Source: Candidatus Limnocylindria bacterium (lineage in GTDB: Bacteria > Chloroflexota > Limnocylindria > P2-11E). From it: a stretch of DNA of 64,000 bases. The stretch covers positions 74,503 through 138,502 of the forward strand of contig DASRGG010000005.1 of assembly GCA_035651155.1 (NCBI GenBank), written 5' to 3'. A program made the translations under genes and the position numbers. Every line of letters starts with the position of its first letter. Position 1 is the stretch's first letter. Positions 34,834 through 38,674 of this stretch are shown one piece after another. Below the pieces are notes generated by a model. It ran no database searches, was not told the origin of the DNA, and was given only the letters and a program-made list of their open reading frames with translations.

Positions 34834-37089
34834 CTAGAGCTCCCGCCCGAGAGCGCGCGCGAGGCCGCCGCCGTGCGCGCGCGCGAGCGACGCGACGGGC
34901 ATGCCGAGCACGGGCGCGACCTCGAGGAGATCGCCGCCCATCGCCCCGAGCGTCCACACCGGGACCTCGTGCTCGGCGGCGAGCGCGCGGATCGCGTCGG
35001 CGTTGCGCGGCTCGACCACGAGCACGATGCCGGAGGGTCCTTCGCCGAAGAGCGCGACGCGCTTGTCGATGCCGCGAAGAGCCGGCAGCGTCACCTTCAT
35101 CCCGAGGCCGTCGCGCAGCGCGATCTCGGCGAGCGCGACGCCGAGGCCGCCCTCCGCGCGATCGTGCGCCGCGCGCACGAGGCCGCGCGCGTGCGCGCCG
35201 AGCACGAAGCGCTGGAGCCGGGCCTCGAGCGCGAGGTCGATCGCGACCGGACCCTCGTGCACGCCGCCGAGCGCGCCGTACGCCGACGTGCCGAGGCTGA
35301 CGTTCGCGTTCCCGGCGAGGAGGACCACGTCGCCCGCGCGCCCGGAGGTCACCGGGATCGCGCGCGTGACGTCGGCGAGGTGCCCGACCACGCCGATGAC
35401 CGCCGTCGGCCAGATATCCGCGCCCTTCGTCGCGTTGTACAGCGAGACGTTGCCGGAGACGACAGGGACCCCCAGCGCCTCGCAGGCCGCCTTGATGCCG
35501 GCGACGGTCCGCTCGAGCTGCCACGCGCCGGTCGGCCGCTCGGGGTTGCCCACGTTGAGGCAGTCGGTGATCGCGAGCGGTGTCGCACCGACGCACACCA
35601 CGTTGCGCAGCGCCTCGGCGACGGCGGACGCCGCGCCGACGAACGGGTCGATCGCCGCGACGCGCGGCTGCGCGTCGATCGCGACCGCGATGCCGTCGCG
35701 CCGCCCCTTGATGCGCAGCACGCCGGCGTCGCCACCCGGTGCGATCACCGTGTCGGTGCCGACCATCTGGTCGTACGTCCGGTACAAGACGCGTCGCGAC
35801 GCGACCGCCGGACTCGCGAGGACGTCCAAGAGCTCGAGGCCGATCTTGTGCGTTGCCTGCGCGCCGCCGGCGCCGAGGTGCCCTCCCTCGACCTCGCCGG
35901 CAACGCCGCTCGCGGGCTTCGCCCACGCCCGTACGTCGTACTCGGGTGCGTCATCGGCCAGCCAGCGCGGGTCGAGCGTCGCGACGGGCTTGCCCTCACT
36001 GAGGATCTCGAGCACGGGCTCGGCGATCACTTCTCCGATGCGGACGCCGTGCAGCTCCCAGCGCTCGAAGGCGCGCTCGATGTCGGCCTCGCGTCCGGGC
36101 CGCGCGATGACCAGCATCCGCTCCTGCGATTCGCTGAGCATCACCTCGTACGGCGTCATGCGGTCCGCGCGACGGGGCACGGCGTCGACGTCGACGCGCA
36201 TGCCGACGCCGCTCCGCGCGGCCACCTCGCTCGTCGCGCAGGTGAGGCCCGCGGCGCCGAGGTCCTGGACCGCCTCGACCGCGTCCATCGCGATGAGCTC
36301 GAGCGTCGCCTCCATGAGGAGCTTCTCGAGGAATGGATTGCCCACCTGCACCGACGGCCGGTGCGCGTCGCTGCCCTCGCCGAGCTCGAAGCTCGCGAGG
36401 AGCGACGCGCCCGCGATGCCGTCGCGGCCGGTGTCGGATCCGACGAGATACACCGCGCTCCCGGGCCGCGCCGAGCTCGCGAAGCGCAGCCGGTCGCGCT
36501 CGACGAGGCCGACGCACATCGCGTTCACCAGCGGGTTGTCGAGGTAGCAGGGCTCGAACGACACGTGACCGGCGACGTCGGGGATGCCCACGCAGTTCCC
36601 GTAGAAGCCGATGCCGCCGACCACGCCGCCGACGAGACGGCGGGCGCGCGGCTCGTCGGGCGTGCCGAAGCAGAGCGCGTTCAGGAGCGCGACCGGGCGC
36701 GCGCCCATCGCGAAGACGTCGCGGAGGATGCCGCCCACGCCGGTGGCCGCGCCCTGATAGGGCTCGACCGCGGACGGGTGGTTGTGGCTCTCGACCTTGA
36801 AGGCGCAGAGCAGGCCGTCGCCGAGATCGACCGCGCCCGCGTTCTCGCCCGGGCCGACGGCGACGCGCGGACCCTTCGTGGGCAGCGTGCGCAGCAGCGG
36901 CTTCGAATGCTTGTACGCGCAGTGCTCGCTCCACATCGCACCGAACATCGCCCACTCGAGCGCGTTCGGCTCGCGGCCCACGAGCGCGCGCACGCGTTCG
37001 GCTTCGGAGGCGGTGAGACCGACCTCGCGAGGGATGTCCAGCTTAGGCTTCGCCGTCGTCGTCCCCGTCATCATCGGGGACGCGCTCAT
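34834..37089 (-). CDS. purL: Phosphoribosylformylglycinamidine synthase subunit PurL (FGAM synthase II)
   Basis: 751 aa starting MSASPMMTG... Contains MFGAMWSEHCAYKHS and duplicated AIRS-like domains. The upstream 189 codons of the track ORF are artefact. The start overlaps the stop of the upstream fused NTase-HEPN gene (ATGA). Confidence 0.9.
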   Translation of the reverse strand: MSASPMMTGTTTAKPKLDIPREVGLTASEAERVRALVGREPNALEWAMFGAMWSEHCAYKHSKPLLRTLPTKGPRVAVGPGENAGAVDLGDGLLCAFKVESHNHPSAVEPYQGAATGVGGILRDVFAMGARPVALLNALCFGTPDEPRARRLVGGVVGGIGFYGNCVGIPDVAGHVSFEPCYLDNPLVNAMCVGLVERDRLRFASSARPGSAVYLVGSDTGRDGIAGASLLASFELGEGSDAHRPSVQVGNPFLEKLLMEATLELIAMDAVEAVQDLGAAGLTCATSEVAARSGVGMRVDVDAVPRRADRMTPYEVMLSESQERMLVIARPGREADIERAFERWELHGVRIGEVIAEPVLEILSEGKPVATLDPRWLADDAPEYDVRAWAKPASGVAGEVEGGHLGAGGAQATHKIGLELLDVLASPAVASRRVLYRTYDQMVGTDTVIAPGGDAGVLRIKGRRDGIAVAIDAQPRVAAIDPFVGAASAVAEALRNVVCVGATPLAITDCLNVGNPERPTGAWQLERTVAGIKAACEALGVPVVSGNVSLYNATKGADIWPTAVIGVVGHLADVTRAIPVTSGRAGDVVLLAGNANVSLGTSAYGALGGVHEGPVAIDLALEARLQRFVLGAHARGLVRAAHDRAEGGLGVALAEIALRDGLGMKVTLPALRGIDKRVALFGEGPSGIVLVVEPRNADAIRALAAEHEVPVWTLGAMGGDLLEVAPVLGMPVASLARAHGGGLARALGREL

Positions 37090-37937
37090 GCGTCCTCGCC
37101 CGCTCCTACGAATCGCTGGACCTGGTCCGCGAAGGCGCGGAGGTCCGGGAGGCGCGTCTGGATCTGCCCGTACACGTCGTCGATGTCGGTCTGGTCGCGG
37201 TCGTACGCGAGCAGGTTGCGCAGGTTCGCAAGGTGCTCGAGCCGGTACGCCAGCGGCCGCTCGATGATCCCGTGCCCCGCCACGGCATCCAGTATGTCGT
37301 GATACGCCTCGGGCCGCGGAAGGGCGAGCGCCATGACCAGATACGCGCCCGTGCCGAACAGGAGCTCGACCGCCTGCTGCAGATACCACTGCGCCAGGCC
37401 GTACAGCTTGGGGTCCGACTTGAACTTCGCGTGCTCGATCGCGCGCAGGTCCTCGAGCAGCTGCGTGTACTCGCGCAGGCGCGCGAGGCGCGCGGCGATG
37501 TAGTCGCGGTCGATCGCGAAGCGGTCGCTCTTGGTGCGCTCCGCGAGCGCCTTCGACTGGAGGTCGTCGTACTTCTGGAAGTCGAGGTAATCCATCACCG
37601 CGCGGGTCTCCCACCGCACGCGGCGCTTCTCGTCGCGCTGGTAGAGGATGTTCCACGAGCGGATGACCTGGGCGCGCTGCAGCAGGCTCGCCTGGTTGAG
37701 GATCACCACGTCGAGCCCCTCGGTCTCGAGCGTCTTCGAGAGCTCGCTCACGAAGTAGACCTGGTAGTCGAAGAACTCGTTCGCCTTCACCTTGTCCAGG
37801 AGAAGGAGCGCGACGTCGATGTCGTTGTAGGCGCCCGCGAAGCGGCGGCCTGAGGCGTTGCCCTGCGTGTAGGCCGCGTCGACAGGGCTTCGCTGGAAGA
37901 GCGCGTGGAGCTGGGCCTGCCTTTCGAAGAGGTCCAT
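37086..37937 (-). CDS. Fused nucleotidyltransferase (MNT/Pol-beta NTase) + HEPN-like (HepT/DUF86-type) protein, inserted between purQ and purL
   Basis: N-terminal NTase motif GNASGRRFAGAYNDIDVALLL...GLDVVILNQ (GS, DxD, third Asp). The C-terminal region LEHLANLRNLLAYDRDQTDIDDVY aligns to the HepT RNxxxHxY motif with His replaced by Ala. 283 aa. This architecture also resembles KNTase-type nucleotidyltransferases. Confidence 0.6.
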   Translation of the reverse strand: MDLFERQAQLHALFQRSPVDAAYTQGNASGRRFAGAYNDIDVALLLLDKVKANEFFDYQVYFVSELSKTLETEGLDVVILNQASLLQRAQVIRSWNILYQRDEKRRVRWETRAVMDYLDFQKYDDLQSKALAERTKSDRFAIDRDYIAARLARLREYTQLLEDLRAIEHAKFKSDPKLYGLAQWYLQQAVELLFGTGAYLVMALALPRPEAYHDILDAVAGHGIIERPLAYRLEHLANLRNLLAYDRDQTDIDDVYGQIQTRLPDLRAFADQVQRFVGAGEDA

Positions 37938-37960
37938 CTCGGTCCTATCTATCTATACAT

Positions 37961-38674
<714 letters not shown>

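Follow-up and report, generated by a model that had tools for sequence, protein, structure and literature searches.

Why is a gene built like a toxin-antitoxin module located in the middle of a purine biosynthesis cluster? The question was raised by a 64,000-nucleotide stretch of DNA from a Candidatus Limnocylindria bacterium of the phylum Chloroflexota (GenBank assembly GCA_035651155.1, contig DASRGG010000005.1), which is called the window here. On its minus strand, the cluster reads purB, purC, purS, three extra open reading frames (ORFs), purQ, a gene referred to as X, purL, purF, purM, and purN. Gene X (37086..37937, minus strand, with an ATG start and including the TGA stop) encodes a protein of 283 residues, in which ORF and domain searches revealed a fused MntA-HepT-like architecture. 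Its upstream neighbor is purQ (37961..38674, minus strand) for the glutaminase subunit of formylglycinamidine ribonucleotide (FGAM) synthetase, and its usual downstream neighbor is purL (34834..37089, minus strand; 751 residues from the ATG at 37089). An earlier note on this DNA had reported the 283-residue ORF between purQ and purL, a spacer of 23 nucleotides, and an ATGA overlap, all of which were confirmed from the sequence. The start and the geometry given there hold, but the end at 37972 lies 35 nucleotides past the start codon and takes in the spacer and the purQ stop. In summary, X as a whole is on balance probably a domesticated descendant of MntA-HepT that is neither an RNase nor a toxin-antitoxin system. 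This reading starts from the homology, residue loss, synteny, and selection observed below.

Domain identity of gene X

What kind of protein is X? Residues 1-141 (37515..37937, minus strand) form an MntA-type nucleotidyltransferase domain of the Pol-beta fold according to hhalign and NCBIfam, and residues 142-283 (37086..37514, minus strand) form a HepT/DUF86 HEPN domain according to Pfam, a PDB profile match, AlphaFold2, and Foldseek. The fusion of an MNT-type nucleotidyltransferase with a HepT/DUF86 C-terminal domain, proposed in the earlier note, was confirmed by Pfam, NCBIfam, and hhalign. Polbeta (PF18765) matched residues 34-104 with 28.1 bits (cut-off, 26.9), and HepT-like (PF01934) matched residues 155-273 with 59.7 bits (cut-off, 23.5). 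In NCBIfam, HepT_toxin (NF047751) scored 62 bits (cut-off, 60), and MntA_antitoxin (NF047752) scored 49 bits (E 4e-13) on the single X sequence, which is under its 60-bit equivalog cut-off. When the X family profile was aligned with 26 stand-alone MntA proteins by hhalign, residues 1-141 were covered end to end (probability 100%, E 3.4e-42). Thus, the N-terminal half is a complete MntA homologue, beyond a motif match.

A PDB profile search with the X family found Shewanella HepT (6m6w, E 4e-13) and Bacillus subtilis YutE (1ylm, E 2.7e-7). Two AlphaFold2 runs were made, with alignments of 73 and 101 family members. The HEPN domain was predicted confidently, with a predicted local distance difference test (pLDDT) score of 79-97 per 10-residue block over residues 141-280. 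In Foldseek, the top matches of this model included the HepT chains 7ae6, 7ae8, 6m6u, 7bxo, and 6m6w, with template modeling (TM) scores of 0.85-0.92 and root-mean-square deviations of 1.5-3.0 Å; the TM score to YutE (1ylm) was 0.84.

Loss of the RNase residues

Is the HEPN domain of X still an RNase? The former RNase motif, R240-N-L-L-A-Y245-D-R247 (37197..37220, minus strand), was aligned with LRNIAVHDY of Shewanella HepT and with 34 stand-alone HepTs. In the latter, the Arg is present in 34 of 34 sequences, the Asn in 33, the His after three more residues in 33, and the Tyr after another single residue in 33. Tyr245 of X falls on the position of the catalytic His, and Arg247 on that of the Tyr that accepts adenosine monophosphate (AMP); the acceptor in the characterized Shewanella MntA system is Y104 (PMC7641770). 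The earlier note was right that the motif has no His, but it named Ala as the replacement, and Ala is the preceding residue. Sites were counted over orthologs from 67 Limnocylindria species and over a wider set of 182 sequences. The catalytic His is found in none of the 67 species (Tyr in 64, Phe in 3), and position 245 is Phe in 14 of the 182 sequences. As the HEPN domain lacks the catalytic His, X is very probably not an RNase, in agreement with the inactive RNase domain predicted before. Judged from these residues, a canonical HepT RNase and a canonical AMPylation switch are ruled out. Tyr245 was also considered as a new site of AMPylation in cis. This is unlikely because it is Phe in the 3 species (14 sequences), lies two residues off the acceptor position, and would depend on a transferase center that is eroding.

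Could X be a remodelled HEPN nuclease, in which H213 or Tyr245 serves in place of the His? No part of the protein is more conserved than the former active-site helix, in which R240-N241 are invariant. H213 does not vary in Limnocylindria or in the main Ktedonobacteria clade, the nearest outgroup described below, and some HEPN families are known to have an alternative conserved His (PMC3710099, Table 1). Nevertheless, such a nuclease is very improbable, given the Phe residues at position 245. Y-[R/H]-[D/E] is typical of the family at position 213, where 16 of 34 active HepTs have Arg and 4 have His, so that H213 as a migrated catalytic His is unsupported as a novelty. Furthermore, DUF86 proteins without the His exist. 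One of them is YutE (UPF0331/DUF86), which resembles X in its DUF86 fold, its chromosomal location, and the lack of the catalytic His (R-K-T-L-V-Q); it is a stand-alone protein of 144 residues with no fused transferase domain, whereas X is fused.

It was also considered whether X might be a live toxin-antitoxin or defense module whose MNT domain restrains a toxic HEPN domain by auto-oligoAMPylation, like FhepTA. FhepTA is a fused MNT-HEPN toxin-antitoxin of the Shewanella oneidensis prophage CP4So (SO_1440; Yao et al., NAR 2026, PMC13000451). Both proteins are single chains of similar size (283 residues for X and 276 for FhepTA) with an N-terminal MNT and a C-terminal HepT-type HEPN domain; the boundary lies near residue 141 in X, and FhepTA has a short linker between the domains (PMC13000451). 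In addition, X has many full-length fused relatives at 24-34% identity with canonical GS, DxD, and RNxxxH motifs, which are of the FhepTA kind described in Shewanella prophages. However, FhepTA keeps RxxxxH and the adjacent Tyr, which is auto-oligoAMPylated, and its HEPN domain is toxic, while X lacks both residues. Its transferase motif is also drifting, unlike that of FhepTA. FhepTA resides on prophages and mobile genetic islands, while X is fixed and slowly evolving in a core metabolic cluster of the chromosome, with class-wide vertical inheritance and the rate of a core enzyme. PADLOC gave no match for X as a defense system. A live module of this kind is contradicted by the sequence and is hardly credible.

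The same erosion is seen in the comparison with the two-gene type VII MntA/HepT systems (Shewanella SO_3165/SO_3166: 5yep, 6m6w, 7bxo; Aphanizomenon MNT/HEPN: 7ae2-7ae9). Both domains of X are clear homologues of theirs, and X shares with them the R-N of the RNase motif and three carboxylates. In contrast to these systems, X is fused and has no mobile context, and RX4HXY has become RNLLAYDR and GSX10DXD has become GNx11DID.

Distribution and synteny in Limnocylindria

Is X common in Limnocylindria? The closest proteins, all of 283 residues and 85-94% identical, come from metagenome-assembled genomes (MAGs) of Candidatus Limnocylindria and related Chloroflexota. Scanning one genome for each GTDB species, I found 77 loci with an X-type gene, 75 of which have Limnocylindria-type flanks; intact full-length orthologs are present in 69 species loci. 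In the 75 loci, X lies right after purQ (gap, 5-115 nucleotides) and ahead of purL wherever the flank is present. The purQ-X junction is uninterrupted throughout, though both neighboring junctions are sometimes broken. As in the window, 0.7-1.9 kb separate purS from purQ in many related loci, and X is separated from purL by unrelated genes in eight species loci. These inserts encode LuxR-type ATPase regulators, an FAD monooxygenase, lipoprotein-like ORFs, and a Hen1/Pnkp pair. A 1010-residue LuxR-family AAA ATPase regulator in the opposite orientation is seen in L026 (6849-9884) and L053 (6849-9878, minus strand). In L038 (7686-11638), the insert consists of a Hen1-like methyltransferase and a Pnkp-like kinase/phosphatase/ligase, an RNA-repair pair by sequence. 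No mobile-element context was found around X in the relatives.

Some of these loci carry other taxon labels. L002, L023, L048, L049, L063, and L069 are labelled Acidiferrales, Bathyarchaeia, Saccharimonadales, Gaiellaceae, or Udaeobacter, and their purQ-X-purL segments are 71-89% identical to that of the window. Mis-binning of Limnocylindria contigs in public MAGs is the probable cause, as the purQ and purL genes of these loci share 63-90% identity with those of the window.

Since most of the 75 loci had been found through X, purQ was sampled independently in metagenomes. X follows purQ in 3 of 3 Limnocylindria-type purQ loci (74-86% identity) and in none of the 77 purQ loci of other lineages. 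Sixty-nine of the latter loci have enough flank: purL is adjacent in 38, follows other inserted genes in 9, and is arranged otherwise in 22. The adjacency of purQ and purL, taken as near-universal in the earlier note, is therefore common only. The inserts of other lineages are mostly small genes, including a HigB/HigA-like pair in L159. In a lineage outside Limnocylindria with a purQ 47-48% identical, the gap holds a conserved, secreted-looking protein of about 190 residues (L139, 927-1523; L142, 1373-1924; L153, 1145-1741), and the genes found there in L144 and L155 encode small membrane proteins. Insertions between purQ and purL are tolerated in several lineages.

Was X inserted recently, as the word "wedged" had implied? 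Every recovered Limnocylindria-type pur cluster has X, and its rate is like that of purQ and purL. In the 40 fully covered loci, X is on average 77.1% identical to its counterpart in the window, PurQ 75.3%, PurL 75.6%, and PurS 69.3%. The median ratio of nonsynonymous to synonymous substitution rates (dN/dS) is 0.24 for X, as against 0.27 for purQ and 0.285 for purL, so that purifying selection on X is as strong as on these two. X evolves at the pace of a core enzyme, unlike toxin-antitoxin or defense genes. A recent insertion, or a mobile toxin-antitoxin carried as cargo, is excluded by its synteny and its rate of evolution; in this class, X is an ancestral member of the cluster, which is the outcome that the earlier note itself had named as speaking against an insertion.

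The purQ-X junction

The junction (37938..37971, minus strand) contains the purQ stop codon TAG (37961-37963), a 12-nucleotide tandem duplication (37948-37971), and a Shine-Dalgarno sequence, TAGGA/AGGA, 8 nucleotides ahead of the X start codon. The duplication consists of two copies of TGTATAGATAGA on the minus strand and spans the purQ stop codon. The spacer is 23 nucleotides long in the window because the duplication lengthens it. The closer relatives have a single copy of the AT-rich element TATATAGATAGG, of which the window has a duplicated form. Despite a genomic G+C content of 70% (70.8% in the window), the AT-rich TATATAGATAGG..GAG ATG junction is common to most of the closer relatives compared and is not present in L039, L040, and L051. 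Where it occurs in these relatives, the purQ stop lies within or right ahead of the X ribosome-binding site. At the other end, the TGA stop of X overlaps with the ATG of purL (37086..37089, minus strand), and this ATGA overlap was also found in 11 of the 40 fully covered loci. No promoter-like or terminator-like site was found in the 36.8-38.9 kb region of the window, and no Rfam family in the 30-50 kb region.

Ktedonobacteria orthologs and the origin of the locus

Is X known outside Limnocylindria? Its nearest outgroup is a well conserved Ktedonobacteria clade, whose members are 46-48% identical to X and 67-97% identical to the brp13 query. This main clade keeps GS, DxD, the third Asp, and R-D-x-L-V-H, with Pro instead of Tyr after the His. 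The orthologs lie right after moaD-moaE in 5 of 5 loci examined (L077, 5074-6849; L076; and L079-L081), once with a 4-nucleotide overlap. In these loci, the molybdopterin synthase genes moaD-moaE and the ortholog are followed by a convergent gene for a TPR protein. Thus, moaD-moaE is a second conserved metabolic-operon context of the X family. A second Ktedonobacterales clade, about 39% identical, has also lost the His and is found in other contexts. A shared purine theme was looked for in Ktedonobacteria; purE-like and inosine monophosphate (IMP) cyclohydrolase genes lie within a few kb in two loci only, which was taken as a coincidence.

The fused gene was thus already stable and chromosomal in the common ancestor of these Chloroflexota classes; X then landed behind purQ in the Limnocylindria stem, and the catalytic residues were lost stepwise there.

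These contexts raise the possibility that X has a general housekeeping role apart from purines and is a passenger in the cluster, its place behind purQ being a frozen accident of operon history. The association of the closest outgroup orthologs with moaD-moaE speaks for this, as do the other contexts of the second clade, the unrelated genes tolerated at the purS-purQ and X-purL junctions of Limnocylindria, and the inserts between purQ and purL of other lineages. On the other hand, the purQ-X junction is intact in all 75 loci though both adjoining junctions break, and most closer relatives share the AT-rich junction with the purQ stop inside or just before the X ribosome-binding site. In addition, an independent link between HEPN and a purine amidotransferase exists. 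In the archaeon Methanospirillum hungatei, PurF has a C-terminal HEPN domain, which was proposed to bind nucleotides (Brown et al. 2011, PMC3261824). Like X, it ties a HEPN-type domain to a purine glutamine amidotransferase, but there as a fusion to PurF in one archaeon, and the likeness is one of description. In the literature, I found nothing on purine genes of Limnocylindria and no link of purQ or purL with HEPN, DUF86, or MNT genes. A passenger is a serious possibility, if short of an even one.

Conservation of the transferase site

Does X transfer nucleotides? The earlier note had assumed an intact GS motif, but the sequence reads GN. The degenerate GSx10DxD motif is G26-N27...D39-I40-D41 (37815..37862, minus strand, read from the sequence), and the third metal-binding carboxylate is D76 (37710..37712, minus strand), which aligns with a nearly invariant Asp of stand-alone MntA proteins. 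The Ser of the GS motif, invariant in the 26 stand-alone MntAs, is Asn in the X of the window. In the 67 species, position 27 is Thr in 35, Ser in 23, Met in 4, Asn in 3, Leu in 1, and Arg in 1, and is among the most variable 11% of sites. The Ser position ahead of DxD varies among Ser, Ala, Gln, and Asn and is also among the most variable. Position 41 is Asp in 53, Ser in 12, Gln in 1, and Gly in 1. Thus, the second catalytic Asp is lost in 14 of the 67 species, all with the purQ synteny kept. Thirteen of them have D-Q-S, D-Q-Q, or D-H-S and constitute a subclade about 80% identical to the window that retains purQ-X-purL; D-L-G also occurs among the 14. Position 76 is Asp in 65 and Glu in 2.

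By contrast, the former RNase helix is nearly frozen. R240, N241, L242, L243, A244, and D246 are invariant in the 67 species, Tyr245 is found in 64, and Arg247 in 66. Seventy-one of the 283 sites are invariant, including R240, N241, D246, H213, Y231, and E234. The nearly frozen helix and the drifting transferase sites indicate that, in this lineage, it is the fold and the old HEPN cleft that are under selection, more so than the transfer of nucleotides.

X might still be an active nucleotidyltransferase of the KNTase/GlnE design, which would transfer AMP or another nucleoside monophosphate to a small molecule or a protein (possibly PurQ, PurL, or PurS), with the dead HEPN domain binding the substrate. 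G26, D39, D41, and D76 are kept in 53 of the 67 species and in the window, and the N-terminal domain holds most of the positions that are invariant across the three clades, D41 and D76 included. Moreover, the Ktedonobacteria orthologs have the canonical GS...DxD...D, and there is published precedent for domestication along this line. In MNT-HEPN fusions, the HEPN part has usually lost its catalytic residues and goes back to a toxin-antitoxin system that was domesticated, and the HEPN-derived C-terminal domains of such transferases are thought to bind substrate or to regulate (Anantharaman et al. 2013, PMC3710099). The KNTase-type likeness put forward in the earlier note fits this scenario.

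However, both Ser positions and the second Asp drift as described above. AT replaces GS in 2 of the 67 species (5 of the 182 sequences), which is the substitution in the dead Shewanella MntA mutant G27A/S28T; this mutation and D39E/D41E each abolish AMP transfer (PMC7641770). The resemblance to ANT(4') (1kny) and GlnE/GlnD is in design only, namely a Pol-beta transferase followed by a helical HEPN-derived domain without RNase residues. The C-terminal domain of X is still recognizable as DUF86/HepT and is not KNTase_C, DUF4037, or GlnD_UR_UTase. A Pfam scan of X at E up to 10 found only Polbeta and HepT-like; the KNTase_C named in the earlier note was not matched, nor was a DUF4037, DUF4111, or GlnE-type domain. 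Unlike ANT(4'), X has an eroding transferase center and lacks the patchy distribution of a resistance gene. Because phosphate-binding and metal-binding positions drift, and with 14 of the 67 species lacking the second catalytic Asp, the active transferase suggested earlier is doubtful.

A probable domesticated MntA-HepT protein and the limits of this reading

How might X work? I favor its being a domesticated, non-RNase descendant of MntA-HepT. X would have been inherited vertically from a single-chain MntA-HepT protein resembling type VII toxin-antitoxins. The toxin-antitoxin logic would have been dismantled by the replacement of the RNase His with Tyr or Phe and of the AMP-acceptor Tyr with Arg, along with the drift of the phosphate-binding Ser positions and, in one subclade, of the second catalytic Asp. 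X may then act through binding, with no RNA cleavage and no self-AMPylation, since the former HEPN active-site helix (R-N-L-L-A-Y/F-D-R) is its most rigidly conserved patch. The ligand is likely to carry a phosphate (a nucleotide or RNA) and may be seated in the HEPN groove, where the MntA-like domain would serve as an intramolecular partner. As the purQ stop lies within or just ahead of the X ribosome-binding site, X is probably made together with PurQ, and its translation may usually be coupled to that of PurL, too.

Several points weigh against this interpretation. The binding or regulatory mode is suggested by the conservation pattern, and nucleotide transfer may persist in the 53 species that keep the four transferase residues. 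The N-terminal domain was predicted as all-helical and with low confidence in both AlphaFold2 runs (pLDDT 30-46), giving no usable model. The recovery of most of the 75 loci by searching with X itself leaves its universality in Limnocylindria unproven. Finally, the orthologs of the sister clades follow moaD-moaE, an ABC transporter gene, or a gene for a biotin-lipoyl protein, and the pur position may be a historical accident.

Fused MNT-HEPN proteins with a dead HEPN domain are already known; what is notable here is the fixation in a core operon, the enzyme-like conservation, and the stepwise decay of both catalytic centers. As for purine synthesis, X has no homology to PurS, PurQ, or PurL in Pfam and NCBIfam, and it is by gene position that they are linked. 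A purine-specific role would follow from position only, because the Ktedonobacteria orthologs keep the catalytic residues and sit after moaD-moaE. A more specific version is that X is a fourth component of the small-PurL FGAM synthetase, a dead MntA-HepT scaffold that senses purine nucleotides and controls the assembly or activity of PurS-PurQ-PurL. Such a sensor would be made in step with PurQ, and its ligand would be an adenine or guanine nucleotide bound in the cleft of the former active site. This version is rather improbable.

Other features of the window

The interruption between purS and purQ (38675-40820) contains three extra ORFs and is absent from the closest relative, L001. They encode a 338-residue protein with no Pfam match (38799-39815, minus strand), a 157-residue protein with HTH_28/HTH_23 that resembles the N-terminal fragment of a transposase (39938-40411, plus strand), and a 166-residue protein with no match (40308-40808, minus strand). 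At the end of the cluster, just downstream of purN, lies a gene of the Fic/DOC family of the AMPylase type (30673-31512, minus strand). It was considered as a conserved partner of the pur cluster and rejected, as it is present only in the window and in L001 (89% identity). In L078, no Fic match was found in the 685 nucleotides after purN; the 6-kb flanks of the other loci are too short to judge.

The window also has a separate two-gene MNT/HEPN pair (7542-8109, plus strand). Its 116-residue nucleotidyltransferase has intact GS and DLD motifs (NTP_transf_2, Polbeta), and the 75-residue ORF that overlaps it by ATGA matches only the first third of HEPN (PF05168) and is probably a truncated partner. 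An ORF with a PIN domain (VapC-like), of a toxin-antitoxin type, is located at 17179-17574 (plus strand).

Implications

Toxin-antitoxin genes are normally mobile, patchy, and fast-evolving. X is a toxin-antitoxin descendant held at the rate of a core enzyme, in one fixed place of the purine cluster, throughout a class of bacteria that abound in soil and fresh water. The public records name the Limnocylindria proteins "HepT-like ribonuclease domain-containing protein" and the Ktedonobacteria proteins "type VII toxin-antitoxin system HepT family RNase toxin." Such annotations call for caution, as it is very improbable that those of Limnocylindria are RNase toxins.

The family provides a natural series for the change of a selfish module into a host gene. 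It runs from the canonical fused relatives through the Ktedonobacteria orthologs with all catalytic residues and the His-less Limnocylindria proteins to the subclade that also lacks the transferase Asp. A textbook pathway would gain a further level of regulation if X interacts with PurQ or PurL. If the nucleotide-sensor version were true, a toxin-antitoxin module would have been turned into a metabolic sensor subunit.

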